From NCBI GenBank assembly GCA_040387855.1, contig JAZKCY010000001.1:104396-168395 (forward strand): a DNA stretch of 64,000 bases, written 5' to 3'. Origin of the DNA: Patescibacteria group bacterium. GTDB lineage: Bacteria > Patescibacteriota > Minisyncoccia > Phycocordibacterales > JAKAEA01. Positions 17,656 through 59,916 of the stretch are shown here, piece after piece (position 1 is the first letter of the stretch; every line of letters begins with the position of its first letter). Both the position numbers and the translations under genes were made by a program. A model generated the notes under the pieces. The model searched no databases, was not told where the DNA came from, and worked only from the letters and a program-made list of their open reading frames with translations.

Positions 17656-17681
17656 TACCTCTACAGTGATACGATATATCT

Positions 17682-18629
17682 ATGTTTACTACTATCTACA
17701 TTCCCACAAGAATTCAAAACGATACTGCATCAGCAATTTTTATATTAAAGAAATATGGCCGAGAAAAATTTCCAGGGATTGAAAACGCAAAGATAGAAAT
17801 TAGATCTGTTATACCTGTAGGTTTTACTGAAGAAGCTTTGGAAAAAGAGGGGATAGTACTTGTTGATATTGGAAAGGGTAAATTTGATCACCATGGCTCA
17901 GAAGTACAAATTACTTCAACCGATCTCGTATGTAAATTCTTGGGTGTTATAGATAATCCAGCATTAGAAAAGCTTCGAAAATATGTGGAGCGATGTGACT
18001 TTTTTGGTAAAGGCATTATTTCAAATGATCCATTAGATAGAGCTTTTGGATTGCCAGGGCTCCTTATAAATTTAAATAAAAAGCATAACTCAGAGCCAAA
18101 TTCTGTGTACCCAATAATTGCCGAACTTTTTGATGCTCACGTTTTAGAAGAAGAACAGCGTACAGTAGGGTTACCAAAAGAAGTTGAAGAAAAAACCACA
18201 GCTGGATTGGTGGATATATTTAGCCTCAAGCATCATGGCAAAAATATTAAGTGCATCTATATTGCTTCAGATAATATCAGCCTTTCAGGATACCTTCGTT
18301 CTCAAATGGGCGGAGCATATGATGTTGCGATTATTCATATGAGCACAGGACATATAAATATTATGACTCGTCCTGCCAAGCGTGTTGATTTACATGCTCT
18401 CATTGCTGTCATACGCCGCTCAGAGCTTATGAAACGTGGTGACGTGAAGCTCTACACCAATGATCTTCTTTCTCAGACAGGCCGCTTTGATAAGGTCCCT
18501 CAGTGGTATTATGATCCTGCTACAAACTCACTTCAAAACGGAGGGATCAATCCAGGGCAAATAGAAAAGACTGTACTCTCTCGAAAAGAAATAATTGAAT
18601 TGGTGAAAGTGGGATTGGGAGATAGATAA
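17682..18629 (+). CDS. divergent MYG1-like paralog (low GC); the N-terminal His/Asp metal motif is not conserved
   Basis: VLVDIGKGKFDHHG aligns to the DVG..DHHQ region of the upstream MYG1, but the THxGxFHxDE block reads TRIQNDTASA. Confidence 0.5.
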   Translation: MFTTIYIPTRIQNDTASAIFILKKYGREKFPGIENAKIEIRSVIPVGFTEEALEKEGIVLVDIGKGKFDHHGSEVQITSTDLVCKFLGVIDNPALEKLRKYVERCDFFGKGIISNDPLDRAFGLPGLLINLNKKHNSEPNSVYPIIAELFDAHVLEEEQRTVGLPKEVEEKTTAGLVDIFSLKHHGKNIKCIYIASDNISLSGYLRSQMGGAYDVAIIHMSTGHINIMTRPAKRVDLHALIAVIRRSELMKRGDVKLYTNDLLSQTGRFDKVPQWYYDPATNSLQNGGINPGQIEKTVLSRKEIIELVKVGLGDR

Positions 18630-18637
18630 TATTTTTT

Positions 18638-19087
18638 ATGATTATAGAACCAGATCAGCACTATTATGAAAATGGGAAATATGTGTGGACTCCTGAAAAA
18701 AGGGCTGCTGCGTGGGAAAAATGTTTTACTGTTTTAGAACAAGAAGCGACATCTGGAAAATTTAAAAAGATAGTGATGCTTATTGGCATTCCAGGAGCAG
18801 GGAAGAGTACCTACACTAAAGCTCATGATAGTGAGTCTACTATTATATTTGATGGAGTCTTTGTAAATCCGAAAGAACGGGAACGAGCTATTACTATTGC
18901 ACATTCAACAGGCCTTCCGATTGAAGGGGTGTGGCTTAATACACCTTTAGAAATATGTTTGGAAAGAAATGCTCAAAGAACTGATGATAGAAAGGTACGG
19001 GAGGATCATGTAACTATGATGTATGAGAATTTACAGAAAAATAAGCCTCGTTTAGAAGAGGGATATACGACATTTATAGAGCAATAA
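18638..19087 (+). CDS. small P-loop NTPase/kinase (AAA_33 / polynucleotide-kinase-like)
   Basis: 149 aa with Walker A GIPGAGKST, a downstream D/R-rich lid, and a size and architecture resembling Pnk/zeta-type kinase domains. Confidence 0.55.
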   Translation: MIIEPDQHYYENGKYVWTPEKRAAAWEKCFTVLEQEATSGKFKKIVMLIGIPGAGKSTYTKAHDSESTIIFDGVFVNPKERERAITIAHSTGLPIEGVWLNTPLEICLERNAQRTDDRKVREDHVTMMYENLQKNKPRLEEGYTTFIEQ

Positions 19088-19093
19088 AGACAC

Positions 19094-19121
19094 TTGACAA
19101 TATATATAGCTGTGCTATAAT
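19094..19121 (+). promoter_or_regulatory. consensus sigma70 promoter (TTGACA, 16-nt spacer, TATAAT) for the 19172 gene
   Basis: Perfect hexamers read directly from the sequence. Confidence 0.55.
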
Positions 19122-19171
19122 ATACACCGTACCAGTTCCGTCAGTTTTCACCTACTAGAAAGGGTCATTCC

Positions 19172-19855
19172 ATGACCGCTTCGTCCACCCCCAGCGTCGC
19201 TTCCGCCAAGATCCTGATGTCCAGCCTCCGCACCGTGAACCGGTTCGTGCTGAACTTCCAGGTCGAGGGCCTGCGCCCGCCGAGCAACTTCCCGCCGATC
19301 CGCGAGTGCGCCCCCCTCACCACGGGGACCAAGGCGCCCAAGCAGGTCGAGCGCGGCGAGAAGCTCGTCGAGCGGACCCGCGAGGTCTGCTCGCTCGATG
19401 CCCCGAGCATCATCAGCGCCTGCTTTGACGCCGGCCTGATCTACTGCAAGATGCTCATGCTCCCCAAGGGTCCGCCCACGGTCAGCATGCGCTTCAAGCG
19501 GCAGACGGAGCAGACCGACGCGGTCGCCCCGAACGACGCCAACTACCTCACGACGGAGATCGAGACGATCTACGGTCCGTGGATGGTGATGCTCCAGGGC
19601 TCGCTCCGGCTCGACTGCAACTTCGACCCCTACGGGCTCACCGTGGAGGAGGAGGCCGAGTACCTGCGGAAGCGCTACCGGAACGCCGGCACGCACAACG
19701 CGACGGAGATCGAGCGCAAGGTCAAGCAAGAGGCCACGGGCACGCCGTACCTCCTGACCGGGACGCACTACGTCGAGGCCCTGCGGCTCACCCCGCCGGC
19801 CTACCACAGGCTGTTCGCCCACGAGGGTGCGCTCCTGCTCGACGGCGAGCTCTAG
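19172..19855 (+). CDS. hypothetical protein, very high GC (about 65%, strongly GC3-biased), unknown function
   Basis: 227 aa with normal amino-acid composition and GC-ending codons. The overlapping minus-strand ORF 19148..19969 is judged to be a high-GC antisense artefact. Confidence 0.6.
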   Translation: MTASSTPSVASAKILMSSLRTVNRFVLNFQVEGLRPPSNFPPIRECAPLTTGTKAPKQVERGEKLVERTREVCSLDAPSIISACFDAGLIYCKMLMLPKGPPTVSMRFKRQTEQTDAVAPNDANYLTTEIETIYGPWMVMLQGSLRLDCNFDPYGLTVEEEAEYLRKRYRNAGTHNATEIERKVKQEATGTPYLLTGTHYVEALRLTPPAYHRLFAHEGALLLDGEL

Positions 19856-19911
19856 GTCGATGTTCGACCCAGCGTTTTGATGAACAATACCCCAAACTAG
19901 AAAGGTGAACA

Positions 19912-19940
19912 GGCCGATGCATAAACTGCATCGGCCTTTC
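19912..19940 (+). terminator. rho-independent terminator after the 19172 gene
   Basis: GGCCGATGCA-TAAAC-TGCATCGGCC perfect 10-bp stem followed by TTT. Confidence 0.6.
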
Positions 19941-19953
19941 ACTTGGGAAAGAT

Positions 19954-19980
19954 TTGACATGCTCCACACTTTCGTATAAT
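19954..19980 (+). promoter_or_regulatory. consensus sigma70 promoter (TTGACA, 15-nt spacer, TATAAT) re-initiating the rpsS-rplV-rpsC... operon
   Basis: Hexamers read directly from the sequence. Confidence 0.55.
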
Positions 19981-20031
19981 ATGTGACTCACGCTCTGAAC
20001 TAGAGCTCTTTTGTTTCATATATATCTATCC

Positions 20032-20385
20032 ATGGCACGATCACTCAAAAAAGGACCATACGTTGACGAAAAGCTTCTCAAGAAAATTGAGGGCAAAAAG
20101 CCACAGGCTACTGGGGTTATTAAGACCTGGGCACGTGCAAGTCAGATTTCACCAGAAATGGTAGGTTTTATCTTTGGCGTTCACAACGGTAAGGATCATA
20201 TCGAAGTTTTGGTATCTGAAGAAATGGTGGGTCATCGTCTTGGTGAATTTTCTCCAACAAAGAAATTCCTACGACACGGAGGTAAGATGCAGAAGGAGCT
20301 TGAACAGAAAAAGAAGGAATCAGAAATTGCAGCAGCGCAATCTGCTAAGGCTGCAACAGCTGATGCCGGTGCTAAGAAAAAATAA
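20032..20385 (+). CDS. rpsS: 30S ribosomal protein S19 (Lys/Ala-rich C-terminal extension)
   Basis: [12 protein letters not shown] matches S19. The start is placed at the internal ATG of the ORF listed from 20011. Confidence 0.9.
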
Positions 20386-45174: not shown

Positions 45175-46323
45175 ATGAAAATAGCTATTAATATCACCCG
45201 TGAACAAATGGGAGGTATTACCACAACAAACCTTAGTCTTCTCAATCAACTTCATGGGTCAAATGATGTGTCTTTTGTTGGAATAGAATTAAATAGCAAC
45301 AGAAGCTTTAAATCAGCATCATTATTTAGACACTTGAGTCCTGAATGGTTTTCTCATCATGTAATAAGCGTGTGCGATTATCCCCTTGGAGTCATGATAA
45401 AGCGATCTAAGAATCTCGCTGATCTAGAAAAGAGATTTGCTCCCATAATCTTACTCATCAGAAAAATTTTACAAAAAGAACGACCTGACGTTGTTCTTTT
45501 AAATGGCACATATTACATGCCCTGGCTCATATCTATCGCATGTAAAAAAGAGAAGATCCCTGTAGTGCTTTGGTATGCGGGTGTACTTTCTCAAGAGACC
45601 TCTCATTTTGCGGTAAAAGAAAAGAACTTGATGTGGAATATGGAACGAGCTGTTGTACACAATGCAACCAAAGTAATTTTCCCATCAACTATTTGTAAAG
45701 AAAAAGTACAAAGATCTGTGGTGAATTCTACTAAAGTACGAAATGCATTGGTGATTCCAAATCCAATTTCTCCATTGTTTACTCAGCACAAATCACCAGA
45801 ATCTTCTGTTGAAAATAGAATTGCTTTTGTTGGCCGATTTGCTCAAATCAAAAATCCTGCAGGTTTTATTAAAATACATAAAGCGCTTTTAAAATGTAAG
45901 TGGAAGCATGAGGCAACCATCGTAACAAACGTACAATCTATTGATCGTAGAAAAATCCCAAAGACTATCACTGTTTTGCCAAGTATGACTCCTAGTGAAT
46001 TGAAGATATTCTATGCAACTCAAGGGGTAATTATATGCCCGTCATTATTTGAAACATTTGGTAATGTCCCAATCGAAGCAGCATGTATTGGTATTCCCGT
46101 TCTTGTACACAATAATATGGGATGCGCTGAAGTGCTCAATGAGTCTAATTTGAGAAAATGTGTTATTGATTTTAATGATGAAGCTGCCGTTATTAAAAGA
46201 GTAAAAGAATTGTGTGGCCAGCAGATTCTCATACGACAGATAAATAATTTAAGAAAAAGAGTAGACGTAAAATATATCTCGCAAGAAATAATTTTGGTAA
46301 TTAAGAGTGTTATAGAGAAATAA
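45175..46323 (+). CDS. glycosyltransferase family 4 (GT-B, group 1)
   Basis: C-terminal ETFGNVPIEAACIGIPVLV matches the E-x7-E GT1/GT4 motif. Confidence 0.75.
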   Translation: MKIAINITREQMGGITTTNLSLLNQLHGSNDVSFVGIELNSNRSFKSASLFRHLSPEWFSHHVISVCDYPLGVMIKRSKNLADLEKRFAPIILLIRKILQKERPDVVLLNGTYYMPWLISIACKKEKIPVVLWYAGVLSQETSHFAVKEKNLMWNMERAVVHNATKVIFPSTICKEKVQRSVVNSTKVRNALVIPNPISPLFTQHKSPESSVENRIAFVGRFAQIKNPAGFIKIHKALLKCKWKHEATIVTNVQSIDRRKIPKTITVLPSMTPSELKIFYATQGVIICPSLFETFGNVPIEAACIGIPVLVHNNMGCAEVLNESNLRKCVIDFNDEAAVIKRVKELCGQQILIRQINNLRKRVDVKYISQEIILVIKSVIEK

Positions 46324-46324
46324 A

Positions 46325-46345
46325 AAACCGCGAACGAGTCGCGGA
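46325..46345. terminator. bidirectional terminator shared by convergent genes
   Basis: CCGCGA-ACGAG-TCGCGG hairpin with an A-run on the + side and a T-run on the - side. Confidence 0.5.
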
Positions 46346-47641
46346 TTAGAAGAACTTGAGCATGAAGGTGATGATGATGAACAATACACCCAGGATGCTC
46401 ACGCTCCAGATGATGTAGCCAAAGAACGAAGGCATCGAGATCCCGCGCCGTTTGGCAATGGCGAAGATCATAAAGTTTGGCGCATTGCCAATGTAGGTGA
46501 GTGCCCCCATATACACGGCGCCAAGACTGATGGCCTTCACGAGGTCTGGTGATTGTGCTGTCAGGTGGGGAAGCGAGGTCGAACCCGTTGTCGATTCGGC
46601 CATCGACATGAATACCAGGAACGTCGGCGCATTGTCGAGCACCGACGAGAACACACCGGTTGCCCAGAAGTACTGTGCTGGCTCGCTCACTCCAAGCGAC
46701 GAACCTGAATGCTGCAGCAGCTGCAGTGCTGGGACCATTGTCATGAAGATCCCGGCGAATACGACTGCCACCTCCACTATCGGTCCGAACTCGAAGTTGT
46801 TTTTTTGTCGCGCCTCTTTTGCAATTGGCGCGAGCTTCGAGTACACGAGTGATATGACGATGGTGATCACGAAGATCACTTCACGCCACGGGCTCGCTAC
46901 CGCAATGACACTGCCTACGATCACCATCATGAGCACTGCATTGCCAAGGCCGATGAGCATGAGTGGCTCCACATGCTCTTTGTCTTGAGCAATATCTTCG
47001 TTGGACTCCTTGTTGTAAAAGTACTTGTCGATCACGAGGTACACAGCGAGCAACACGATGCCGCTCACCAACCAGTAGACCCAAAGATTTCGGGCAAACC
47101 AGAAGAATTCGATTCCTCGCAAGTAGCCGAGGAAGAGCGGTGGGTCACCGAGGGGAGTGAGTAACCCTCCGAGATTGCTTACCAAAAAGATGAAAAACAC
47201 GACAGTATGCCGCACGTGTTTTCGTTCTTGGTTGCTTCGCAATAGTGGATAGATCATGAGGATCGAGGCACCCATTGTGCCCACAACACTCGCCATGATG
47301 TATCCGCTCGCAAGCATCATCGCATTGCGGCCCGGCGTTGCTCGCAGATCACCCTTGATGTGGATGCCTGAGGCAACGATGAACAGCGCAGCGAGGAGCA
47401 GTATGAACTGCACAAATTCGATCCCCGCATGCACGATCAAGTTTCGATCGTGCTGTGCCACGTAGATGGCAACTGGTAAGCCGAGCGTGAGGATCACGCA
47501 CAATTTCACCCAGTTTTTTTCCCACGCATGCTTGGTAAAGCTCACGAGGGGAAGGACTGCGATGAGGCCGAGCAGCACCGCAAACGGCACTACCGACCAC
47601 AGTGTTGGAATCCACGAACTTGCTGCAAGTGATGAAATCAC
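46346..47641 (-). CDS. ArsB/NhaD-superfamily permease (putative ion/anion transporter), elevated GC (about 54%)
   Basis: LTPLGDPPLFLGY matches the TPxGDPPN-type motif, with multi-TM topology. A GTG start sits behind a GAGAGGG Shine-Dalgarno. Confidence 0.6.
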   Translation of the reverse strand: MISSLAASSWIPTLWSVVPFAVLLGLIAVLPLVSFTKHAWEKNWVKLCVILTLGLPVAIYVAQHDRNLIVHAGIEFVQFILLLAALFIVASGIHIKGDLRATPGRNAMMLASGYIMASVVGTMGASILMIYPLLRSNQERKHVRHTVVFFIFLVSNLGGLLTPLGDPPLFLGYLRGIEFFWFARNLWVYWLVSGIVLLAVYLVIDKYFYNKESNEDIAQDKEHVEPLMLIGLGNAVLMMVIVGSVIAVASPWREVIFVITIVISLVYSKLAPIAKEARQKNNFEFGPIVEVAVVFAGIFMTMVPALQLLQHSGSSLGVSEPAQYFWATGVFSSVLDNAPTFLVFMSMAESTTGSTSLPHLTAQSPDLVKAISLGAVYMGALTYIGNAPNFMIFAIAKRRGISMPSFFGYIIWSVSILGVLFIIITFMLKFF

Positions 47642-47777
47642 GACACCCTCTCTGTAAGAACAATTGAATCCGTTCAATCGACGGTCAGACTTTTAAATAC
47701 CACATTATATATATAAAGTCAATATACTAGCAAATAAAAAACCATGAAGCGCGATGGTTTGTCGCGCACTCATGGTG

Positions 47778-48173
47778 TTAAATACTTAGCCCGATTTCTA
47801 TCCGCAAAAGCTCTGAACACCTCTGCATGTCTTCAATCGGTAAGACATGTGCTTCCTTGAAATCTCGATGTCGATCTCTTACTTCTGGGATATCAAACAC
47901 CGACTTCTTGATCATCCGGAAGCAGGCAGGATCATTTTTGATGATTGCCCAGTCTTCACCGGAACCGATGATGATTCCGCATACAAAAGCGATCCACATG
48001 TCCCACGCCTTGAACGAGTGTAGCTCGTCGTTGGGAACTTCCGGTTTCCACGTGGGCAGTGGGCCTGGGTTAAACTTTGCCTGTCCGCGTTGGAAGTAAA
48101 TCATCGAGGTCGTGGGATTGTTTCTTCCATACACCCACAGACACTCAACCGCTGGCAGTTTCACAGACATCAA
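47778..48173 (-). CDS. hypothetical protein, moderately elevated GC
   Basis: 131 aa ORF followed by an ACCAT...ATGGT hairpin and T-run. Confidence 0.4.
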   Translation of the reverse strand: MMSVKLPAVECLWVYGRNNPTTSMIYFQRGQAKFNPGPLPTWKPEVPNDELHSFKAWDMWIAFVCGIIIGSGEDWAIIKNDPACFRMIKKSVFDIPEVRDRHRDFKEAHVLPIEDMQRCSELLRIEIGLSI

Positions 48174-48245
48174 TACCTCCTCGGTTTTGTACAGTAAAGG
48201 TACCGTAGATGATAGTACTAAAATCCAATAAAAAGGCCAGTCGAT

Positions 48246-48449
48246 TTATTTAACTAGATATTTGCCGGCAACACTGAGTGCAAATGAAGGTAAAATAATA
48301 CACACAGTAGTTTGAAGTAATCTAATAAGCACAATGTTGAAGACGGTGCTTCCATCACCATCAGGAGGAGTTGTTGCAATTAGAAGGATGCCAATAATAC
48401 CGAAAGCTATAGATGCGTAGATAAATATTTTAGTAGCAATAGGTTGCAT
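48246..48449 (-). CDS. small membrane protein
   Basis: 67 aa, 2 TM. Confidence 0.35.
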   Translation of the reverse strand: MQPIATKIFIYASIAFGIIGILLIATTPPDGDGSTVFNIVLIRLLQTTVCIILPSFALSVAGKYLVK

Positions 48450-48460
48450 AGAAGTAGTAA

Positions 48461-48664
48461 TTATTTTTTATATTCCAAAACATCACCTGGCTGGCAGTCT
48501 AATGCTTTGCAGATTGCATCAAGAGTTGTAAGTCGTACTGCTTTTGCTTTGCCGTTTTTCAAGATAGAAAGATTGGCCATAGTAATGCCCACTTTTTCTG
48601 TGAGTTCAGTAACGCTCATTTTTCGCTTTGCAAGCATAACGTCAATGTTGATAATAATTGCCAT
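48461..48664 (-). CDS. small XRE-family HTH transcriptional regulator (YozG-like)
   Basis: MSVTELTEKVGITMANLSILKNGKAKAVRLTTLDAICKALDCQPGD. Confidence 0.8.
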   Translation of the reverse strand: MAIIINIDVMLAKRKMSVTELTEKVGITMANLSILKNGKAKAVRLTTLDAICKALDCQPGDVLEYKK

Positions 48665-48671
48665 AAATAGT

Positions 48672-49190
48672 TTATACAGTTAATTCGTTTTCCTTTTTAA
48701 TATCAACAACATTCTGTAAGAGTTTTTGTAGTACACCTGCAAAGGTGGCAATGATAAGTGGTGAACATACAAACGTCATTGCAAAAAGAATGAGTCCAGG
48801 TGCATCATCTCCATCAGCAATAAAAAATGCGAGCGGCATAATAAATACATAACACAAGGTCATACTACCTGCGCAGTACTTTATTGTTTTTAGAGCATTC
48901 ACTGATTCCTGAGAGAACGCAGTGTTCTTATCAATGTATGTTAAAAGCTTGAGACCTTGATAGAGTGCGATGAAAAAGGGAATAGCACTGAGATATAGTC
49001 CTACAAATGCGAAAGGTTGCGACTCTTTAATTCCTGGCCACTCAAGTGCCATTCCTCTATATATGTGAGGGAATGCAAAAATGCAGAGGGCGAGTACCGC
49101 GAGTCCAAATACGATAATGACTGCTTTTAAAAATAATGTTGATCCTTTATTCATAAAACTATGATTAGTTGATGATAAAGAGCTTAGCAT
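48672..49190 (-). CDS. DUF2975-like membrane protein (the usual partner of YozG-like HTH)
   Basis: 172 aa, 4 TM, with the conserved gene pairing. Confidence 0.5.
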   Translation of the reverse strand: MLSSLSSTNHSFMNKGSTLFLKAVIIVFGLAVLALCIFAFPHIYRGMALEWPGIKESQPFAFVGLYLSAIPFFIALYQGLKLLTYIDKNTAFSQESVNALKTIKYCAGSMTLCYVFIMPLAFFIADGDDAPGLILFAMTFVCSPLIIATFAGVLQKLLQNVVDIKKENELTV

Positions 49191-49265
49191 GGCGTATATC
49201 GTAAGTCAATAAATATATATTGTTTTATTATTTTGACTATAAAAAAAGCACTAATGACTTTAGTG

Positions 49266-49892
49266 CTATTTCGATGTATTGCGAACTGCGGCGAAGCATG
49301 TATTCTCCCAAGGGACCCTGAGATCCTGCCCTCCGGTCATGAAGTAGTTTGGAGCGAGTTGGAGTACTCGCTTGTTACTAATCTTCATGAGTACTGGGTT
49401 GTACCCAACGTGGGGTGGGCTCGTGTTGGTTTTATCAAACACCATTTCCCCAAGTGCCAGTACGATGTGGTCGTTCTGGAACTCGGGGTATTTGGCGCCG
49501 AAGGCCAAGAGCTCGACGAGATTTGCCGGACGGCAGTCGTTGTCGACGATGATCTTTAGGATGTCGTTCGTACGCATACTGCGTTCGAACGAAAACATGA
49601 CCATCGTTTCTTCAGCGCTCGCTCGAGTGGTGTCCGAAATTGTACGCGGAATTCGCGGGTTAACCTCCACATACGTACCACGCTCGATATACTCATGCGA
49701 GCTGAGTGTCCGATCAACGGCAACCGAAAATTCTTTCGTTCGAACTTCTGGTCCCGATTCCTTGATCGGGTTCGTCATCGCTTTTTCCTGGGCCTCCTTC
49801 ATCAACCGCTCGCCCTCGTTGTGGGGCGCGCAGCCGATGGTGAGGCCGAGGATCATGACGATGAGGAACGACAGACGGGGAAGCAGTGACAT
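49266..49892 (-). CDS. lipoprotein of unknown function, high GC (about 57%)
   Basis: Signal peptide with lipobox LTIGC. Confidence 0.55.
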   Translation of the reverse strand: MSLLPRLSFLIVMILGLTIGCAPHNEGERLMKEAQEKAMTNPIKESGPEVRTKEFSVAVDRTLSSHEYIERGTYVEVNPRIPRTISDTTRASAEETMVMFSFERSMRTNDILKIIVDNDCRPANLVELLAFGAKYPEFQNDHIVLALGEMVFDKTNTSPPHVGYNPVLMKISNKRVLQLAPNYFMTGGQDLRVPWENTCFAAVRNTSK

Positions 49893-50058
49893 GGTTTCTC
49901 CTTGCAGGGCGCACTGGCTTTTAGTTTCTGCACATGCAGTTACTTCTTGCCAGTAAAGAACGGATCATCAGTACTACATCATATTTAATAATATAAGTCA
50001 AATATAGTTTTTAAATAAAAAACCGCACTACATACACATTGTGTAGACAGGCGGCGAA

Positions 50059-51132
50059 TCAAGTTTGAGGTTTACCTAAAGAACGGAGCAGTCTGTAGTG
50101 GGACACAATGGCCAACCACATCGTGTCGTGTGAGTGGTAGGTCAGTTCGTGGCGTTTGCAGACCCGTCGTACGAGCCTGCAAATTTTGGGGTAGTGGATG
50201 TGGGAAATCCTGGGGAAGAGGTGGTGCTCGATCTGGTAATTTAATCCTCCTAGGAACCAGGTGAGCACTTTGTTTTTTGGAGCGAAGTTGGCCGTCGTGA
50301 GCACTTGATGCTCCGCCCACGCATTTTCCATTGCTCCCTGTTCGGGGTCTGGAAGCGGGAACTTTGTTTCTTCCACTACATGGGCAAGTTGGAATACGAC
50401 GGCAAGTACCACACCCATACACCAACTGGCGAAAAGGTACACGAGCACTACCTGCCAGAACGGATGGAAGAGCGAAGGGATGACAAACGCCCATGTATAG
50501 AACAGAAGCTTGCCTCCAATGAACGTTGCTAGATGCACTCCTCGTGGGCGCGCGAACGGATATTTCCCGATCCGTCCACGTATGACGTTGAGGAAGTCAT
50601 CGAAGAGTTGCCACTTCACAGGAACCAATCCGTACACAAACCACAAATAAATGTGTTGCACGCGGTGAAACCAAAGCCTGGGTTGCGTGGGCGCGAGACG
50701 CCCTAAGATCCCAGTATTGATGTCATCGTCATGCTCCGCAATATTTGTGTATGTGTGATGGACGATGTTGTGCTTGTGCGTCCACACGTACGAACTTCCC
50801 CCTATGGCATCGAGTGAGAATGCAGCGAGACGGTTGATCCATCGGTGTTTTGAAAACGCCTGATGATTCCCGTCGTGCTGAATGCAAAACCCGATTCCTG
50901 CCATCGCCAATCCAATGCTCATGGCGAGCAACATCGCTTGCCACCACGCGGTGGCAAAGAATACGAGCACGATGTAGCTCGCTGCTAGCCACAGCATGAG
51001 CGTGACCGCCTTCACGTAGAGGTCGGCAGTAGCATGGCGACTGCGCTTGGTCATCGCAAAGTAGCGATCCACCGTTTTTTTGAGGTCAGAGAAAAAATCG
51101 CTACGCTTCCGAAACTTGACTGGGGTGATCAT
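50059..51132 (-). CDS. membrane fatty-acid desaturase family protein, high GC
   Basis: Three His boxes: HDGNH, HNIVHH and HQIEHH. Start at the ATG behind GAAAGGAGGG. Confidence 0.8.
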   Translation of the reverse strand: MITPVKFRKRSDFFSDLKKTVDRYFAMTKRSRHATADLYVKAVTLMLWLAASYIVLVFFATAWWQAMLLAMSIGLAMAGIGFCIQHDGNHQAFSKHRWINRLAAFSLDAIGGSSYVWTHKHNIVHHTYTNIAEHDDDINTGILGRLAPTQPRLWFHRVQHIYLWFVYGLVPVKWQLFDDFLNVIRGRIGKYPFARPRGVHLATFIGGKLLFYTWAFVIPSLFHPFWQVVLVYLFASWCMGVVLAVVFQLAHVVEETKFPLPDPEQGAMENAWAEHQVLTTANFAPKNKVLTWFLGGLNYQIEHHLFPRISHIHYPKICRLVRRVCKRHELTYHSHDTMWLAIVSHYRLLRSLGKPQT

Positions 51133-51237
51133 GACACCCTCCTTTCGTTGTAATGCAATTGGTGCTGGTCCAACCAAAGTATACCATCTTGGATGTATAT
51201 TAATTTGAAAGCAGAATCGCAAAGAAATAAAAAGTAC

Positions 51238-52008
51238 CTATACCTCAGAATTCAATATCATTTCAATTTCTTTTTTTACATCCTCATCACTCTTTGTAGG
51301 CATGAGATCTCCTTTTTGATTTCCATAATTACCAGCTTGAGCATGATTCATTCCTTCAATAGGGAAGTCTCTCTGTGACGTTGGAAGATTGCTGCTATAT
51401 GCTGAGAGTTTTTCAGGAGTTAATACACCATCAAGAGAACCATGAATATTTACTACCTTAAAGTTTTTACTTGATACATCGCTGTTGCAGTAGGTTCCTA
51501 CTAAGAGTAATGTCTCAAACTTTTCTGCATGATTTTTTGCATACTCACATGCCATTGCTCCTCCCATTGAATGACCGCCAAGAGTCCATGTTTTTATTTC
51601 AGGATGTGTATCAATTATTTTACCAGCTTGGCCAATACTAAATATCGCGAGATTTAAAGGAGGTTTAGTAACAAACAATATAGAAGGAGAAGAAGTGCTG
51701 GTGACAATACTTTCTAATTTATAAAAGTAAGCTTGAGGATCAACTTTTGCTCCAGGATAATAGATAACTCCTTTTGTAGATGTTGTCGCATTAGGAGCAA
51801 TCTCCCAGTATTTTGGATGCTCAGTTACTGTTATAAGATCTTTATTTGTATTTAAAAATTCTTGAAGTTTAGTTTGATCGGCTTTGTAAATTTGCTTTGC
51901 CCAGATTACAAAAGAAATAACAGCGATCAATAGGAGCGTTATAAGCGTAAGAACTATTTTCCTCCAGAGCTTCATTTTCTTAGGGGTAGGTTGGATAGCG
52001 GTTTGCAT
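51238..52008 (-). CDS. alpha/beta-hydrolase (lipase/esterase-like) with N-terminal TM anchor
   Basis: GHSMGG nucleophile elbow. The start is placed at the internal ATG so it does not overlap the upstream gene. Confidence 0.6.
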   Translation of the reverse strand: MQTAIQPTPKKMKLWRKIVLTLITLLLIAVISFVIWAKQIYKADQTKLQEFLNTNKDLITVTEHPKYWEIAPNATTSTKGVIYYPGAKVDPQAYFYKLESIVTSTSSPSILFVTKPPLNLAIFSIGQAGKIIDTHPEIKTWTLGGHSMGGAMACEYAKNHAEKFETLLLVGTYCNSDVSSKNFKVVNIHGSLDGVLTPEKLSAYSSNLPTSQRDFPIEGMNHAQAGNYGNQKGDLMPTKSDEDVKKEIEMILNSEV

Positions 52009-52138
52009 AAAATATATTATAAAGTGTTTTTTGTTTGTAGGATATTCATAAATAAAAAACTGCGAGATGCATAGAGATGTGAATCTCTCGGCTTTCTCGC
52101 AATAAGTTGGTTGGATGATCCTAACCGATCTTTTCCCT

Positions 52139-52816
52139 TCATTCCTCACTAAGAGGAAATTGGGTCGGAAGTTTCTCGACATGACGTACCATGACATCGA
52201 AACCTCTAAGAATTGTTGGCACGTCTACGCCCGAAAGCTTCACGTGTCCGAATCCCATCTGCCCCATGTCGAGAATCGTGACAACCGTCTCATTTGTCTC
52301 CACCTTGACCTCGATCCTTAAGATGCAGGAAAACTCGGAATCACCGATGCCTTCCAGCCTGCTCTTGAAGTGAGGTAACATCCCGAGCTTGGTGGCGTTG
52401 GACAAGACCCTGTCAGGGATTTCATACATCGCCACGACTTTGCACGGACCGGAGCGCATCTTGAAATACGTAGGGGCCCCAGGTTGCTTGTCGCCGAAGA
52501 CCCGCACGAAATCGTCCGCATCAGTCTCAACTTTATGCTGTGCTGTCACGGGTAAGGACAGCACTAAGGATGTGTCATCCTTAAATTCGGCTTTCCCTCC
52601 ATGAACACCGAATTTAGCCAGAAAGTCGCCGGCAATGTCTTCACCCAGCCTACGTGCTCCTTCTGGTGCCTGAAGATACCATTCCCTCTGGTCACCAGTG
52701 AACCCCGTTCCGATCAAGCGCACTTGAGGATTTCCCGATTTCACAATGCCTCCAAGGCAAGGGTTGTTTGATGAGAACTCTAAGAGGAAATTATAATAAA
52801 ATACATGAGTTGTCAA
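52139..52816 (-). CDS. hypothetical protein, high GC
   Basis: 225 aa ORF with coding-like composition and no recognised family. Confidence 0.45.
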   Translation of the reverse strand: MTTHVFYYNFLLEFSSNNPCLGGIVKSGNPQVRLIGTGFTGDQREWYLQAPEGARRLGEDIAGDFLAKFGVHGGKAEFKDDTSLVLSLPVTAQHKVETDADDFVRVFGDKQPGAPTYFKMRSGPCKVVAMYEIPDRVLSNATKLGMLPHFKSRLEGIGDSEFSCILRIEVKVETNETVVTILDMGQMGFGHVKLSGVDVPTILRGFDVMVRHVEKLPTQFPLSEE

Positions 52817-52899
52817 TTTTATTGTGAAAGTATCTAAAAGAAATAAAAATCCGCAAGAGAGTCGAGGAGAGAATTGAATCTCTCGCGGCTTTCTTGCGG

Positions 52900-53238
52900 C
52901 TACTCATCTTGCATGTGAAGCGACAACCTGATCATCGTGAACCATCTCGCAGGCACGAAATGTGTCGTCTTGAATTCCCCGGGTGTTCGTTCGTGGGGGA
53001 AGTTCACGACCTTACCCGTCTCAGGGGTGTAGGTGGTCAGCCCCATTTCGTTGGGGTTGCAGTTTATGAACTCGGAGTAGAGCTCATCAGGGTCGTTGGG
53101 ATGTACACCCATCACCCCTCGTTCATCTGCCCGGAATCTCCGGATGATCTCGATGACCTCTCCGACTTCATGCCAGCCCCAACTCGCATATGGTTCTGGA
53201 ATGTCTTTGAATCGATGCAAAGCGGGTAACACTTTCAC
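52900..53238 (-). CDS. hypothetical protein, high GC
   Basis: 112 aa ORF with a GTG start behind an AAGGA Shine-Dalgarno. Confidence 0.4.
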   Translation of the reverse strand: MKVLPALHRFKDIPEPYASWGWHEVGEVIEIIRRFRADERGVMGVHPNDPDELYSEFINCNPNEMGLTTYTPETGKVVNFPHERTPGEFKTTHFVPARWFTMIRLSLHMQDE

Positions 53239-53344
53239 GTTTATTCCTTACCACCTTATGGTGGCTGCATAGGAATCTGTTCTTACCTTGGGCTCCCAAG
53301 GTTTCTGCCATTGGTTATATAAAAAATAATAGAAGACTGCAAGT

Positions 53345-53372
53345 AATAAAAAGCCCCGCTAGCATGCCGGGG
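53345..53372 (-). terminator. rho-independent terminator overlapping the stop codon of the 53359 gene
   Basis: CCCCG-CTAGCATGC-CGGGG followed by CTTTTTATT on the - strand. Confidence 0.5.
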
Positions 53373-53739
53373 TGAGACTGCGGGCTCGATTGATGAGCAC
53401 TTCCAAATAGCTGTGCACATCATAATCGAACCACTTCTTTGGACTGTTCGGGTTGAGAATCTTGTCCCTGCTAAACGCCACATGCCCGAGTGGTTCACAC
53501 GCATCCGCAAGATCAGGATAACCTCTCGGCCAGGTTGGCGGATGATGATATCCGGTATAGAGTGTCGCGTCGATAAGGCACGGCTTGTGGTGTGGCAGGG
53601 AACTGAGCTTCACATCCCATGGTACAACTTTAAGCGTGATGAACCCTCGGGCTTTTATGATCCCGAAGATGATCGGCGACAACATTCGCCGCTGGTCCAA
53701 TGGAACGTCGTGAACGACAGTGAGCAACGTAAGAATCAT
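53359..53739 (-). CDS. hypothetical protein, high GC
   Basis: 126 aa ORF with an ATG start behind an AGGAGGG Shine-Dalgarno. Confidence 0.45.
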   Translation of the reverse strand: MILTLLTVVHDVPLDQRRMLSPIIFGIIKARGFITLKVVPWDVKLSSLPHHKPCLIDATLYTGYHHPPTWPRGYPDLADACEPLGHVAFSRDKILNPNSPKKWFDYDVHSYLEVLINRARSLTPAC

Positions 53740-53833
53740 AATATCCCTCCTGGAGAAGATAATACGTCACGGGAGGGAATTGGCAAGAGATTATCAAATA
53801 GCTTTTTATGCTCAACTATTAGATAATTGTAAA

Positions 53834-54262
53834 ATGAAGAAAATAATTAGTGTAATTGTAATTATTACAATTCTACTGTTAGGGTATATTAATATCTTTT
53901 ACTCTGCACCCGCAGAAGATATCTTTGAATTTATTCAAGGATTATTACTGCTATTAATTACTATATTTGTGCCGGCAATATTTATAAAAAAATACATTAA
54001 AAGAACATCAAAGTTATTTGCTACTGGTAAAGGGCTTCTCGTTGGAGGATTACTGGCGATACTCTACAATCTTTTTGATTTTTATTTTATTAAAAAAATA
54101 GTAAATGGCGGTTGTGGTGATCTGTGTGGAATTTCAAATTTTATATTGGGTTTTCTAAGTATTGCCCTAATACTTGTAGGTATTATTTTGTTGATAATTA
54201 ATATAGTTGTAAATATCAAAAGCGGCATTGGTAAAGTTATTGATACTAATTCAAAAAAATGA
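53834..54262 (+). CDS. small polytopic membrane protein
   Basis: Start placed at MKKIISV. Confidence 0.4.
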   Translation: MKKIISVIVIITILLLGYINIFYSAPAEDIFEFIQGLLLLLITIFVPAIFIKKYIKRTSKLFATGKGLLVGGLLAILYNLFDFYFIKKIVNGGCGDLCGISNFILGFLSIALILVGIILLIINIVVNIKSGIGKVIDTNSKK

Positions 54263-55551
54263 AAAATCATAAAAGAGGTTTTGCTCCAGTCATAATAATT
54301 TTTTTGGTAGTTGCTGCTCTTGGAGGTGGTGCATATGTATATACAAATGTTAATGACAAAAAAGAAATCAAAAAAACATTAATAAATGAAAATCCTTTGA
54401 ATGAAACTCCACGTACTGAAAACATACCAAGTACGTCTTCACCATCTCCTAAAACAGCAACGACAACTGTTACTGCTACTACAACTGCAAAAGTTAAAGT
54501 AACACCACCTCCTGTTAAAAAAATAACTATAAGTTGTGCAGCACTCAAACGTAACCTCGTGGTGGGATCAGTGGGGGATGATGTCTATGAACTTCAACGA
54601 TATCTTATGGATCAGGGATTACTCGTAAGAGCAGATTATATTCAAAAGGGAGTCTATGATGAATTTACTCGCGAAGCAGTAGCTCGACTTCATGCAAAGT
54701 TTTCAATTGTTCCTACCGACTTAAGTATTCCGCAGAAAGTTGGAAACTTTGAAAATAAGACCCGAGCATACTTACAAAATGGATGTACAAATACCCAATT
54801 GGTAGCAGCACCTCCTTCTCAGGAAAAACCATTCGATGCTGAATGTCTTTCAAGTTCAGCACCTGCTACTTCTATCGGCATTCCATGTAAACAAAATTTA
54901 ACTACATCAGCATCGGCAAATGTCACAGTGATAACTCCAAATGGAGGTGAGGTGTATTCAATAGGTTCACAGATTCCTGTTATTCGATGGAAGGTACCTT
55001 CTCCCTATAATGCAATTGAACTTGTGCTTATGCCTATGAGTGGAACTAATACCAATAGCCCAATATATAGTGCAAAACTTAAGGGATATGGTTTTGGTGG
55101 ATATGTCCCAAAACAAAACAGCCAATCAGTGGTAGATAGACCAATGATTATGACTGAAAATACTATTGATCAAACGATTCCTCCTGGGCAATATAAAATG
55201 AGAATTTACTATTATGCTGAAGGACAAGATTATACTGAAGCTGAATATCTACCCTTAGGCTATGATGACAGTGATCAATCATTTACACTTATTGATGCTC
55301 CAGAGATTACAGAATTTAGAACATCTCATGAAATTACAAGTGACATCAGATCTACTACATTGGTTTGGAAAACTACAAATGCAGCATTTTGTACAATGAG
55401 TGGTCCTAACTTCGCAGCAAATACTAGTGTGGAAATTGAGAGTGCCGTAAGTACTGGGAATTTAAATGCTACCAGTACCTATATGCTCACGTGTGAAAGT
55501 AAAAAAGGACAAAAGGTTTCAAAATCACTTACTGTTTTTGTAAGTCAATAA
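54259..55551 (+). CDS. secreted protein with a peptidoglycan-binding-like domain (PG_binding_1) and Thr-rich linker
   Basis: Signal/TM at the N-terminus, then GDDVYELQRYLMDQGLL...TREAVARLHAKFSI. Confidence 0.5.
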   Translation: MKNHKRGFAPVIIIFLVVAALGGGAYVYTNVNDKKEIKKTLINENPLNETPRTENIPSTSSPSPKTATTTVTATTTAKVKVTPPPVKKITISCAALKRNLVVGSVGDDVYELQRYLMDQGLLVRADYIQKGVYDEFTREAVARLHAKFSIVPTDLSIPQKVGNFENKTRAYLQNGCTNTQLVAAPPSQEKPFDAECLSSSAPATSIGIPCKQNLTTSASANVTVITPNGGEVYSIGSQIPVIRWKVPSPYNAIELVLMPMSGTNTNSPIYSAKLKGYGFGGYVPKQNSQSVVDRPMIMTENTIDQTIPPGQYKMRIYYYAEGQDYTEAEYLPLGYDDSDQSFTLIDAPEITEFRTSHEITSDIRSTTLVWKTTNAAFCTMSGPNFAANTSVEIESAVSTGNLNATSTYMLTCESKKGQKVSKSLTVFVSQ

Positions 55552-55654
55552 GAGTATAGAACTTAAATACACAAAAGGCTCAGATGAAAATCTGAGTCTT
55601 TTGTGTTTAATGAAGTTAGAATCTCCTTATATGGTGGGGTATTAAAACTTATAT

Positions 55655-56326
55655 TTAAGAAACAAAACTTAAGAATTCATCACCAAAGTTTGTTGTCCTT
55701 TTCGCAAGCATACCTGAACTACTAGTCGTGGCATGGAGCGTGCCTTTTAAAGTTAACCCTTTTGCTTCAAGGTCCTGATATATCAAATCGTAGAACTCTC
55801 TTTTTCCACGAAGTTCAGGATATACTTCTTCCATAAATGTTGTTGCGCCACCCATTGAATATTTATCAAGGTTTACTCCATTAGTTATACAAGCATTTTT
55901 AGGGTCACTAAAATAATGCAAAATTTTAATATGCCAAGGAGTAATGTTATCAATGTATGATAAAAAGATCAGCTTCATATTATTGCTTATGGTTATATTT
56001 CTTGCTGTATTAACTATTGCGTTTTTTAAAGCATCTAGTTTTTCTTGTTCGTGATTTCTAATAGCAATTTGGGATGCATGAATGAAGACTGTAATAAACT
56101 CAGGATTATTCATCAGCTTTTCTTTTGATATAGATTCATCTTCAAGTCTGTTTATTCTCTCTGCCATTTCATTAAACCATTGGGTTTTTCGGGTTTCGAG
56201 CGGAGTATTTACTAAACCAAGTAGTTCTAATGCTGGCCCACCAATAGCAGGAATCATGGAAGCTACAATTTTTGTAATAAACATTGCATGATCGCCAACG
56301 GTTTCTTTTTCTGGGAGTTTACCCAT
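55655..56326 (-). CDS. hypothetical protein (possibly Abi/defence-like; unassigned)
   Basis: 223 aa soluble protein adjacent to the ssrA locus. Confidence 0.35.
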   Translation of the reverse strand: MGKLPEKETVGDHAMFITKIVASMIPAIGGPALELLGLVNTPLETRKTQWFNEMAERINRLEDESISKEKLMNNPEFITVFIHASQIAIRNHEQEKLDALKNAIVNTARNITISNNMKLIFLSYIDNITPWHIKILHYFSDPKNACITNGVNLDKYSMGGATTFMEEVYPELRGKREFYDLIYQDLEAKGLTLKGTLHATTSSSGMLAKRTTNFGDEFLSFVS

Positions 56327-56380
56327 GCTGCGATTATACTCCTGTGATAAAAATCAGCAAATTCATAGGTTCGATTCCCA

Positions 56381-56626
56381 TCATGTCCACATGCTTATTA
56401 GCTTCTCCTTCTTATCTCTTCGCCATTTTTTAATCTGAATTTCTCTTTTGCGAGCAGAGGCCAATGTTGCATGTGTTTCAAGAAACACTATTTTGAATTC
56501 TGATTTAAATTTTGTGTAGTAAGCACCTCGCCCAGAGTTGTGCTCAGCTAATCTCCTTTGTGGTTCATCGGTTACTCCAATATATAAATTGTTATAGGAG
56601 TTTTTTATCATGTAGACGTAGTACAT
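56381..56626 (-). CDS. small GIY-YIG nuclease-superfamily protein (UPF0213/YhbQ-like)
   Basis: YVYMIKNSYNNLYIGVT...RRLAEHN...KKW. Confidence 0.7.
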   Translation of the reverse strand: MYYVYMIKNSYNNLYIGVTDEPQRRLAEHNSGRGAYYTKFKSEFKIVFLETHATLASARKREIQIKKWRRDKKEKLISMWT

Positions 56627-56770: not shown

Positions 56771-56817
56771 AGGTGGCTTGCCACGAGTGATCCTGCGTTC
56801 TTGCGCGGCGAATCGAG

Positions 56818-57226
56818 TGGAGATGGCGGGAATCGAACCCGCGTGCAAAAGAAGTTCTTAAATGGGTCTACAATGTATAGAGAATCTTAACCACCCGAAG
56901 GTGGGTTTAAACGCAGTGGGTAAAAAGATAATCAAAATTCCCACGTTGCCGAGTCCCTTTATTTCGATCAATCATCGGAACGAGTGAAAGATCTATCTCA
57001 ACGATATACCACCAACACTTAGTAAGTTGAGAAAAAACTAAGGTGGCGTCGTCTGGCTACCGTTTAAAGGGGTTTACGCGAGAGCGAAAGCGAAGTTACT
57101 TGCGTAAGGCGAAGCAACTGCTGTTCGTGCTGATTTTGCACTTGAAGTTTCCGTCAGATTTAAGAGTTAACGGTGCTCTACATTGCGCAGATAAGAAACA
57201 AACTCTTGTCTAGGCCGATCATCCCC
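56818..57226 (-). ncRNA. ssrA: tmRNA (transfer-messenger RNA)
   Basis: The 5' GGGGATG pairs with the 3' CATCTCC-A, including the G3:U70 alanine identity pair. The T-arm reads GCGGGTTCGATTCCCGC. There is an internal in-frame tag ORF ...AVASPYASNFAFALA* ending in TAA. smpB lies immediately upstream. Confidence 0.85.
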
Positions 57227-57323: not shown

Positions 57324-57782
57324 CTAACGATCTTTATACTCTCTTCGTATCTGACGTTCGGTATCGCGTTTCTTTATTGATTCGCGTTTATCAAACTGCT
57401 TCTTTCCTCGAACTGTTGCAATTTCAACCTTAATCTTGTGTCCTTTATTATACACTGTAATTGGCACTATTGTCAATCCTTTAACGAGGCCTGCAAGTTT
57501 GGCTATTTCATTGCGTGTAAGCAACAATTTGCGGTTTTGCAGAGGATCATAATCATCTACATTTCCTACCTGATATGGAGGGATTTGCATGTGCATTATA
57601 TAGGCTTCTCCACCACGAATGATGATATATGAGCCTTCAAGTGACCCTTGGCCCTTGCGAAGTGACTTCACTTCCTGACCAGATAGCACAATACCAGCCT
57701 CGAAGCGCTCGAGGATTTCGTAGGTAAAGTGGACTTTTCGGTTGTGGATGAGTGTGCTCACATAATTATGATAACAGAGCAT
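57324..57782 (-). CDS. smpB: SsrA-binding protein SmpB
   Basis: NRKVHFTYEILERFEAGIVLSGQEVKSLR. The exact start is uncertain. Confidence 0.85.
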   Translation of the reverse strand: MLCYHNYVSTLIHNRKVHFTYEILERFEAGIVLSGQEVKSLRKGQGSLEGSYIIIRGGEAYIMHMQIPPYQVGNVDDYDPLQNRKLLLTRNEIAKLAGLVKGLTIVPITVYNKGHKIKVEIATVRGKKQFDKRESIKKRDTERQIRREYKDR

Positions 57783-57864
57783 GGCCGAAAGTATAGGGGA
57801 GCTCATGCGTCCATACATATATATACGGTAACGGGATAGCTTTTTTAATGTATAATAATCACCT

Positions 57865-59835: not shown

Positions 59836-59842
59836 AAAAATG

Positions 59843-59916
59843 TCCACCCTCTTGGATTCGAACCAAGGACCACCGAGGTATAAGCTCGGTGCTCTAACCA
59901 ACTGAGCTAAGGGTGG
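59843..59916 (-). tRNA. tRNA with anticodon UAU (Ile-type, AUA-reading), 74 nt, CCA not encoded
   Basis: Manual fold: acceptor CCACCCT/AGGGTGG, D-arm GCTC-AGTTGGTTA-GAGC, anticodon arm CCGAG-CTTATAC-CTCGG, variable loop TGGTC, T-arm CTTGG-TTCGAAT-CCAAG, discriminator A. Confidence 0.75.

Follow-up and report, generated by a model that had tools for sequence, protein, structure and literature searches.

The window analyzed here is a stretch of 64,000 nucleotides from contig JAZKCY010000001.1 of a Patescibacteria group bacterium (assembly GCA_040387855.1). Most of its genes are AT rich, but ten are GC rich, and seven of these lie in an island of eleven genes at positions 46346 to 53739. The region is probably a hot spot for horizontal gene transfer that drew on several donors and gained genes of foreign composition singly or in small sets, at a few permissive sites. 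The separate entry points are the slot between ssrA and a desaturase gene, the junction of the desaturase with a DUF2975 gene, the space past the adjoining XRE module, the gap between rplB and rpsS (rplB|rpsS), and a site beside comEC.

A first-pass annotation, made from the sequence alone, had described ten open reading frames (ORFs) as foreign in composition, and exactly those ten stand out. The GC content of the window is 0.404. Of the approximately 77 ORFs that were called, 67 are ordinary: their GC content is 0.389 ± 0.033 (range, 0.27 to 0.45), and their GC content at third codon positions (GC3) is 0.289 ± 0.048, with a maximum of 0.41. The ten outliers have a GC content of 0.48 to 0.68 and a GC3 of 0.52 to 0.96 (z = +4.7 to +14). 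The distribution of GC3 is bimodal, and the gap between the two groups is empty. In both composition and codon usage, then, the ten ORFs deviate as expected for genes of genomic islands. The GC contents given at first (52 to 58%) hold for the MYG1 gene at 16707-17618 (58%), but the island genes are really at 48 to 53%. The ORF at 2571-2867 has a GC content of 0.52, and the ORF at 19172-19855 is far more extreme than proposed (GC 0.68, GC3 0.96).

The outlier ORFs are coding, as GC3 > GC1 > GC2 in the given reading frames. They are not paralogous to each other, and they form at least two compositional classes, with GC3 near 0.6 or at 0.96. When we segmented the window with a two-state maximum-likelihood model, the edges of the GC-rich segments fell -52 to +43 nucleotides (nt) from the ends of ORFs; the exception is one segment that fuses two adjacent genes. 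The spacers within the island are AT rich (GC 0.24 to 0.40, as compared to 0.35 for all spacers in the window). Given two or more compositional classes and separate entry points, there must have been several acquisitions, not one block.

All eleven genes of the island lie on the minus strand, and most of them have no assigned function. In the order of transcription, with two terminators that are discussed below, they are:

53359-53739, minus strand: orphan, 126 amino acids (GC 0.52, GC3 0.61), with a GGAGGG Shine-Dalgarno sequence and a 10/12 promoter match
52900-53238, minus strand: orphan, 112 amino acids (GC 0.53, GC3 0.65)
52835-52902, minus strand: long-hairpin terminator after 52900-53238 (-24.9 kcal/mol, z -5.4)
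52139-52744, minus strand: orphan, 201 amino acids (GC 0.52), with a TTGACA-N15-TATAAT match and a GGAGG Shine-Dalgarno sequence
52044-52112, minus strand: long-hairpin terminator after 52139-52744 (-20.1 kcal/mol, z -5.3)
51238-52008, minus strand: membrane-anchored alpha/beta hydrolase (Pfam Abhydrolase_5; GC 0.36)
50059-51132, minus strand: membrane fatty-acid desaturase (Pfam PF00487; GC 0.52, GC3 0.63), with histidine boxes HDGNH, HKHNIVHH, and QIEHH
49266-49892, minus strand: lipoprotein with lipobox LTIGC (GC 0.53), between the desaturase and DUF2975
48246-49190, minus strand: low-GC module (Pfam) of DUF2975 (48672-49190), XRE/HTH_26 (48461-48664), and a 67-amino-acid membrane protein (48246-48449)
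47778-48170, minus strand: orphan, 130 amino acids (GC 0.48, GC3 0.56), with a GAGGAGG Shine-Dalgarno sequence and a terminator hairpin (-19.8 kcal/mol)
46346-47641, minus strand: CitMHS_2 permease of the ion-transporter superfamily (Pfam PF16980, E = 4e-136; GC 0.53, GC3 0.68)

Some of these assignments revise the first-pass annotation. The module at 48246-49190 is not an XRE-DUF2975 pair: there are three genes, including the 67-amino-acid membrane protein. The ORF at 52139 is real, but instead of starting at 52816, it most likely starts at the GTG at 52744, downstream of GGAGG, which gives 201 amino acids. The product of 46346-47641 is indeed a permease, with its family refined from ArsB/NhaD-type to CitMHS_2.

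The orphan ORFs have no match to any family in Pfam, NCBIfam, or PHROG at thresholds of up to E = 10. Across all of the high-GC ORFs, no PHROG match was significant (the best E values were 0.017 to 0.042). Pattern scans of viral sequences found no relatives of the ORFs at 19172, 49266, or 52139, and a pattern scan of metagenomes found no relative of 52139. For the lipoprotein, there are 373 distant representatives, with a top identity of 37%. Its AlphaFold2 model has a predicted local distance difference test score (pLDDT) of 84.6, but in a Foldseek search with this model, no PDB entry reached an E value below 0.001.

The steps in GC content are sharp, as they would be if pieces of another, high-GC organism had been stitched into a low-GC contig during assembly or binning. 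However, two contigs from Logan, which is an independent assembly though built from the same run (SRR26324620), match the window at 100% identity: a 23.4-kb contig across 43571-63739 and a 12.1-kb contig across 13500-25615. Together they cover all of the GC transitions of both clusters, of which there are about 20. Because these independent contigs are identical to the window over every transition, the mosaic is not an artifact of binning or assembly. Furthermore, the transitions coincide with the boundaries of ORFs that have in-frame starts, Shine-Dalgarno sequences, and terminators; the GC step from the desaturase to DUF2975 recurs in an unrelated assembly (L083, described below); and the same pattern of high-GC inserts is found in two other genomes (L003 and L004). 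A chimera is extremely improbable.

The organism itself is a Paceibacteria-type Patescibacterium, and not a member of the Saccharibacteria. Among the species genomes of GTDB, the proteins closest to its ribosomal protein L2 are about 70% identical and are from Candidatus Taylorbacteria, Nomurabacteria, Kaiserbacteria, and Paceibacterota. It is a small, AT-rich groundwater bacterium.

We compared the island to four contigs, which we read as related Patescibacteria from the shared smpB-ssrA/FtsH neighborhood: L083 (JAXOUH010018631), L084 (JAXOUH010047955), the P0028 contig, and L160. L083 and L084 are both from GCA_034680565.1, which contains at least two distinct related Patescibacteria, each with an smpB-ssrA-desaturase locus; evidently, this accession represents a metagenome or mixed sample. 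In the window, the slot continues upstream of the island as follows:

53837-56626: remainder of the variable slot, from the island to ssrA, encoding a 141-amino-acid membrane protein, a 430-amino-acid PG_binding protein, a 223-amino-acid ORF, and a GIY-YIG protein
56817-57226 and 57324-57818, minus strand: transfer-messenger RNA (tmRNA, or ssrA) and smpB, a conserved landmark that lies on the upstream side of the variable slot, in the same order in L083 and L084

Proximity to tmRNA is another mark of genomic islands, and this island starts 3 kb downstream of the tmRNA, within the same slot. In L083, the order is smpB, tmRNA, three variable genes, the desaturase, two DUF2975 genes, and XRE. L084 has tRNA-Ile(UAU), FtsH, smpB, tmRNA, five small genes, and the desaturase. 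In the P0028 contig, smpB is followed by a large serine recombinase, MerR, GP3_package, and others, and then by the desaturase, two DUF2975 genes, and XRE. In L160, a 3' fragment of tmRNA precedes the desaturase promoter at a distance of 55 nt, with no smpB close by. This fragment (390-462 of that contig; 73 nt) has only the 5' and 3' tRNA-like parts, and it scores 22.9 bits with Rfam, which is under the gathering score; it may be a remnant of an attachment (att) site.

Thus, the desaturase lies downstream of smpB-ssrA in L083, L084, and the P0028 contig, as it does in the window, and the contents of the slot differ among all four. L083 has high-GC orphans of its own, different from those in the window, both in the slot and past XRE (GC 0.51 to 0.57, as compared to about 0.42 to 0.45). 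In both L083 and the P0028 contig, the desaturase is directly followed by DUF2975, whereas in the window, the lipoprotein is interposed. The alpha/beta hydrolase (51238-52008) is absent from the syntenic slot of the relatives, and apart from the desaturase, none of the window's high-GC genes was found in the compared flanks. Absence from the same site in relatives, which also characterizes genomic islands, therefore applies to the island with the desaturase excepted, and it applies coarsely, as the nearest relatives are only about 60 to 75% identical in core proteins. From these comparisons, the ssrA-desaturase slot is a variable integration site. One of its genes deviates in the opposite direction, toward low GC: the 141-amino-acid membrane protein (53837-54262, plus strand), which adjoins the high-GC block, has the lowest GC content in the window (0.27, z about -3.6).

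The first-pass annotation viewed the low-GC genes of the island as native. For the XRE-DUF2975 module, this seems to be correct. The XRE protein of the window is 91 to 92% identical to that of L083, the synonymous sites are saturated, and the GC content at fourfold degenerate sites (GC4) has diverged to 0.20 in the window and 0.64 in L083. Given its low GC4 in the window (0.20 for XRE and 0.27 for DUF2975) and its conserved synteny, this module is the only low-GC part of the island that behaves as a long-term resident. The hydrolase, in contrast, is missing from the relatives' slot. More generally, low GC does not imply that a gene is native, as the rplB|rpsS gap contains two low-GC genes that are insertions as well.

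That gap is the second hot spot. In the window, rplB (15727-16578) and rpsS (20032-20385) are separated by an insertion:

16579-20031, plus strand: the insertion, 3.45 kb
16707-17618, plus strand: MYG1 exonuclease (GC 0.58), with a full-length match to MYG1 exonucleases in PDB
17682-18629, plus strand: low-GC ORF, 315 amino acids, with an FDHH motif
18638-19087, plus strand: low-GC PNK-like P-loop kinase
19172-19855, plus strand: orphan (GC 0.68, GC3 0.96)

There is a terminator 3' of rplB and a new TTGACA/TATAAT promoter 5' of rpsS. We compared rplB-rpsS loci from other genomes, including L002-L014 and L062. The spacer is at most 145 nt in 62 non-Patescibacterial and 5 Patescibacterial loci, but it is 516 to 4,880 nt in 9 of about 14 loci from related Patescibacteria (3,453 nt in the window). 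The inserted genes differ in every genome and include a 1,439-amino-acid protein, a MazF-like protein, a DgkA-like protein, and small orphans. In L003 and L004, which are low-GC genomes (0.38 to 0.39), the inserts are at 0.51 to 0.55 and have the same terminator-promoter layout. A relative whose L2 is at least 90% identical (from a 1.6-kb JGI contig) has a gene that begins 135 nt past rplB. On this evidence, rplB|rpsS looks like a clade-wide hot spot for insertion inside a normally contiguous operon. As for the inserted genes, MYG1, the FDHH ORF, and the PNK-like protein could be a trio for processing or repairing RNA ends, placed within a ribosomal operon. We considered MYG1 as a homolog of 17682-18629 and rejected it: only the FDHH motif is common, and the similarity is not significant. 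The motif is in the same relative position in both proteins (residue 68 versus 76), and their lengths are similar.

Most of the added genes seem to be organized as stand-alone units. The claim that each high-GC gene has its own Shine-Dalgarno sequence is nearly correct, as such a sequence precedes nearly all of them, though not strictly each. Also as claimed, several have their own hairpin terminators: a stable hairpin with a run of T's (often TTTTTATT) follows most of the high-GC genes, and several of the hairpins are very stable. Terminators of this style also end native genes and are present in L003 and L004. A hairpin at 46328-46344 ends the CitMHS_2 gene and doubles as the terminator of the convergent GT4 gene (45175-46323). 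Promoters are less uniform, as just four of the ten high-GC genes have strong matches (10 to 12 of 12 positions): two match at 12/12, two at 10/12, and the others at 7 to 9/12. Perfect TTGACA/TATAAT pairs with spacers of 15 to 16 nt precede 19172, 52139, and rpsS, and the 10/12 matches are before 53359 and 46346. A generic scan of 44 to 56 kb was not enriched over shuffled sequences for either promoters (35 versus 29.3) or terminators (13 versus 9.4), so for promoters we consider only the individual strong matches. With these signals, each unit would be transcribed separately.

Two of the terminators, at 52044-52112 and 52835-52902, are paralogous, and they are homologous to the terminator of the desaturase in L083 (5322-5392), with 73% column identity. 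The consensus of this terminator family is GCRAGAAAGCCG...TCTYGCRG followed by a run of T's, with nested hairpins, and its members follow different genes in two genomes. Two of the family's terminators flank one cassette as a direct repeat.

Eleven co-oriented genes that are mostly of unassigned function, each followed by a hairpin, are reminiscent of an integron-like cassette array, and the closeness of ssrA, together with the serine recombinase and phage packaging gene in a relative's copy of the same slot, might suggest a single decayed prophage or integrative element. Both proposals are very improbable. There is no integrase in the window, and no RYYYAAC...GTTRRRY pair at attC spacing (50 to 150 nt) occurs anywhere in 46250-53900. 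The hairpins carry T-runs like ordinary terminators, and several cassettes have promoter matches of their own. As to a prophage, there are no significant PHROG matches and no viral relatives of the three ORFs scanned. Finally, the resident genes (desaturase, DUF2975, and XRE) interrupt the array.

The desaturase deserves separate treatment, as it is shared with the relatives. Its best matches are 61 to 66% identical; the matches with named sources are from Planctomycetota, at 54 to 56%. In a neighbor-joining tree, the desaturase of the window falls in one clade with the Patescibacterial copies, apart from the sequences from high-GC genomes and Planctomycetota. Its -10 element and its Shine-Dalgarno sequence are conserved among the window, L083, L084, and L160. 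Because of this clade, the shared synteny, and the conserved signals, the desaturase is an old, conserved anchor gene of the clade rather than a private, recent import. The first-pass annotation had stated that best matches within the same low-GC lineage would refute its proposal, and for the desaturase, that is where they lie: the nearest matches (61 to 66%) are the syntenic Patescibacterial clade.

Yet the codons of the desaturase do not fit its surroundings. At conserved residues, fourfold sites are saturated between the desaturase copies (identity of 0.29 to 0.34, versus 0.27 to 0.28 expected). GC4 is 0.59 to 0.68 in all copies and 0.59 in the window. Resident genes of the window have much lower values (FtsH, 0.18; XRE, 0.20; SmpB, 0.27 to 0.31), and the same genes in L083 and L084 are at 0.46 to 0.64. 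As XRE has fully adopted the composition of each genome and the desaturase of the window has not, either this desaturase is a later arrival whose source was a GC-richer lineage or its GC content is being maintained in some way. On the reading favored here, it has been in place for a shorter time than its neighbors.

If the latter were true of all the high-GC genes, they would be long-term residents whose high GC3 is maintained by gene-specific selection or GC-biased gene conversion. Consistent with this, the GC3 of the desaturase is 0.55 to 0.63 across four lineages with backgrounds of 0.29 to about 0.5, and saturated synonymous sites, a conserved position, and a promoter and Shine-Dalgarno sequence conserved across lineages all suggest long residence. 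However, the excess of GC3 over background is +0.34 in the window, far above the approximately +0.06 to +0.19 of the relatives; the neighboring XRE gene fully matches the composition of each genome; and none of the nine remaining high-GC genes is present in the relatives' compared flanks. Also, the known effects of gene conversion in bacteria are small. We consider maintenance to be quite unlikely as a general explanation.

Which genomes might the foreign genes have come from? We compared the codon usage of the seven high-GC island genes to 33 references. The best fits (ranks 1 and 2) were L005 and L007, which are GC-richer Paceibacteria, and L084 and L083 ranked 4th and 6th. These ranks and the shared terminator family give moderate support to GC-richer members of the same radiation as the donors of the seven genes. 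The GC content of the CitMHS_2 gene equals that of its contig in metagenomic relatives, contrary to the situation in the window. ORF 19172-19855 must have another source, whose genome has a GC content of at least about 65%: its codon usage fits a 70% GC genome best. It has no homolog among 5.8 billion clusters or in viral contigs, nor in plasmids or phages (by tblastn for the latter two). Its single-sequence AlphaFold2 model is unusable (pLDDT of 33).

The first-pass annotation had suggested repeated, gene-by-gene acquisition from one high-GC donor and speculated that this donor was an actinobacterial host of an epibiont like Saccharibacteria. The evidence agrees with repeated acquisition, as there were several acquisitions at separate sites. 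Recent uptake from a single distant high-GC donor, possibly such a host, would explain why the high-GC genes are unameliorated, and several other observations are compatible with it. ORF 19172-19855 has a GC3 of 0.96 and, as mentioned above, resembles a 70% GC genome; desaturases beyond the Patescibacteria are found in high-GC bacteria (the L085 genome, with 70% GC and 60% identity, and named Planctomycetota); and a distant homolog of the lipoprotein is encoded in a 61% GC genome, adjoining P450 and IclR genes. Nevertheless, at least two compositional classes do not suit a single donor. In native and island genes alike, the commonest arginine codon is CGA, which is not the case in ORF 19172, and the island's terminators are homologous to one from a related Patescibacterium. 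As for a host, no match is named as Actinobacteria, and the organism is Paceibacteria-like, not Saccharibacteria. The nearest homologs should be in the lineage of the host, but the nearest desaturases are Patescibacterial and syntenic, followed by those of Planctomycetota. Overall, a single donor is unlikely, and nothing points to Actinobacteria.

Several observations weigh against transfer from several donors at permissive sites. First, we did not find a close donor: the best identities are 66% for the desaturase, 47% for CitMHS_2 (from a metagenome), and 37% for the lipoprotein, and there is none for ORF 19172. Second, the margins in codon usage are small (-1.119 for the best reference versus -1.129 for the best unrelated control). 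Third, the GC3 of the desaturase exceeds the background in every relative examined (L083, L084, and L160; by about +0.06 to +0.19), so part of its excess may be gene specific rather than a mark of recent arrival. Fourth, the window does not contain any integrase, transposase, or phage gene, according to PHROG and to Pfam searches of about 45 of the approximately 77 ORFs, including all of those outside the block of ribosomal-protein and translation genes. Fifth, no flanking direct repeats are significant; only the T-tails of terminators recur. A search for target-site duplications likewise returned only T-tail repeats, and a 10-nt repeat that flanks ORF 19172 was matched in 5 of 300 shuffles. 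At the tmRNA, we did not find a direct repeat of its 3' end at the far side of the slot or any convincing attR-like remnant upstream of the window's desaturase. There is an inverted copy of the 3' end of tmRNA (T-arm and acceptor; about 20 of 26 positions) at 56363-56390 (plus strand), past the GIY-YIG gene and 430 nt from the tmRNA, which may be a remnant of an old integration or inversion.

We still favor a transfer hot spot with several donors, and its mechanism might be as follows. DNA probably entered by natural transformation, as ComEC is encoded in the window; natural competence has been demonstrated in Saccharibacteria (PMC10633639). In addition, ssrA-targeted integrative elements would have decayed there, as the serine recombinase in the slot of a relative suggests. 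The flanks of the donor DNA would be deleted under genome streamlining, and each gene would be kept as a stand-alone unit that has its own Shine-Dalgarno sequence, usually ends in an intrinsic terminator of its own, and in roughly half of cases has a recognizable sigma-70 promoter. The cargo would act on the envelope and on scavenged lipids, which would fit an organism that remodels the lipids it scavenges. The membrane-linked products (desaturase, hydrolase, transporter, and lipoprotein) are testable candidates for lipid scavenging or remodeling. A bolder proposal, which we find doubtful, is that Paceibacteria have fixed intergenic landing pads (rplB|rpsS and ssrA) that repeatedly capture autonomous cassettes acquired by competence, in a cassette exchange without integrases whose turnover outpaces amelioration. 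Capture might perhaps occur by recombination between terminators of the shared family.

This is real but fairly ordinary horizontal transfer, and transfer into Patescibacteria is already documented; the recurrence of insertions at rplB|rpsS and the GC-rich codons of the desaturase are worth following. The window lets us see, gene by gene, that a streamlined genome of roughly 1 Mb still gains and keeps foreign accessory genes. In addition, compositional outliers in Patescibacteria are sometimes taken as clues to the host, but the donors need not be hosts. The expanded rplB|rpsS gap marks a site that tolerates insertions and could serve as a neutral site for genetics in Patescibacteria. The expansion also breaks the assumption of a contiguous S10 operon that is made in marker-gene binning and synteny checks.

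At the other end of the window, the comEC site includes one more outlier:

2571-2867, plus strand: orphan (GC 0.52), with a probable start at 2583 and a terminator made up of a hairpin plus TTTTTTATT

The order here is the ComEC competence domain (92-1612), sod (1856-2452), the orphan, and Lactamase_B (2917-3783). In many bacteria, the competence, DUF4131, and Lactamase_B domains are parts of one ComEC protein. In the window, the competence and DUF4131 domains are separated from the Lactamase_B ORF by the high-GC orphan and a gene for Fe/Mn superoxide dismutase in antisense orientation. This could be a split ComEC or the normal state of the lineage.

Two other features of the window are unusual. 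An ORF of 858 amino acids at 9608-12184 (plus strand), without a Pfam match, has a GC2 of 0.49 and a GC3 of 0.19; this odd codon-position profile suggests a low-complexity surface protein. Also, the only Rfam matches in the window are the tmRNA and one tRNA, which is a tRNA-Ile with anticodon UAU (59842-59916, minus strand) that is kept beside ftsH in the relative L084 (808-882). Bacteria normally decode AUA with a lysidine-modified CAU tRNA, and a tRNA-Ile(UAU) is unusual.

By its composition, its adjacency to tmRNA, and its absence from relatives, the feature at 46346-53739 is a genomic island, without mobility genes or att repeats, and neither an integron array nor a prophage. It has some likeness to integron cassettes and to CALINs, which are clusters of attC sites that lack an integron integrase, in that single-gene modules, mostly unassigned, are co-oriented and each is followed by an imperfect inverted repeat. 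However, it has no IntI and no attC core motifs, its hairpins are terminators, and several of its cassettes have promoter matches. The morons of phages are reportedly units of promoter, ORF, and terminator, with deviant composition, that lie between genes that are adjacent in relatives. The units described here would similarly be stand-alone, deviate in GC content, mostly have intrinsic terminators, and were inserted between neighbors (at rplB|rpsS and desaturase|DUF2975), but they are among core genes of a bacterial chromosome instead of in a prophage, and only about half have a convincing sigma-70 match.

The tmRNA gene (ssrA) is a classical integration site for prophages and for islands that carry integrases. 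As in ssrA-linked islands, variable genes lie just downstream of smpB-ssrA, here beside a conserved anchor gene; the P0028 contig has a recombinase and phage-like genes; and L160 has a 3' fragment of tmRNA beside the anchor gene. In contrast to such islands, the window has no integrase and only the inverted, degenerate fragment at 56363-56390, and the recombinase of the relative is of the serine type instead of the tyrosine type.

The closest published comparison is to the genomic islands of streamlined groundwater Patescibacteria. According to Gios et al. (2025; PMC12455944), genomic islands and transferred genes account for up to 13% of Patescibacterial genomes and derive mostly from other Patescibacteria. 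The transfers are mostly not recent, as judged by sequence divergence, and the donors are often unsampled. Donors from within the same radiation, as proposed here for the island genes, agree with that finding. The two studies are alike in that atypical genes or islands occur in groundwater Patescibacteria and that transfers are mainly within the phylum. The interruption of the ribosomal operon does not appear to be described in that paper, and our analysis differs in resolving the transfers gene by gene and in naming two hot spots.

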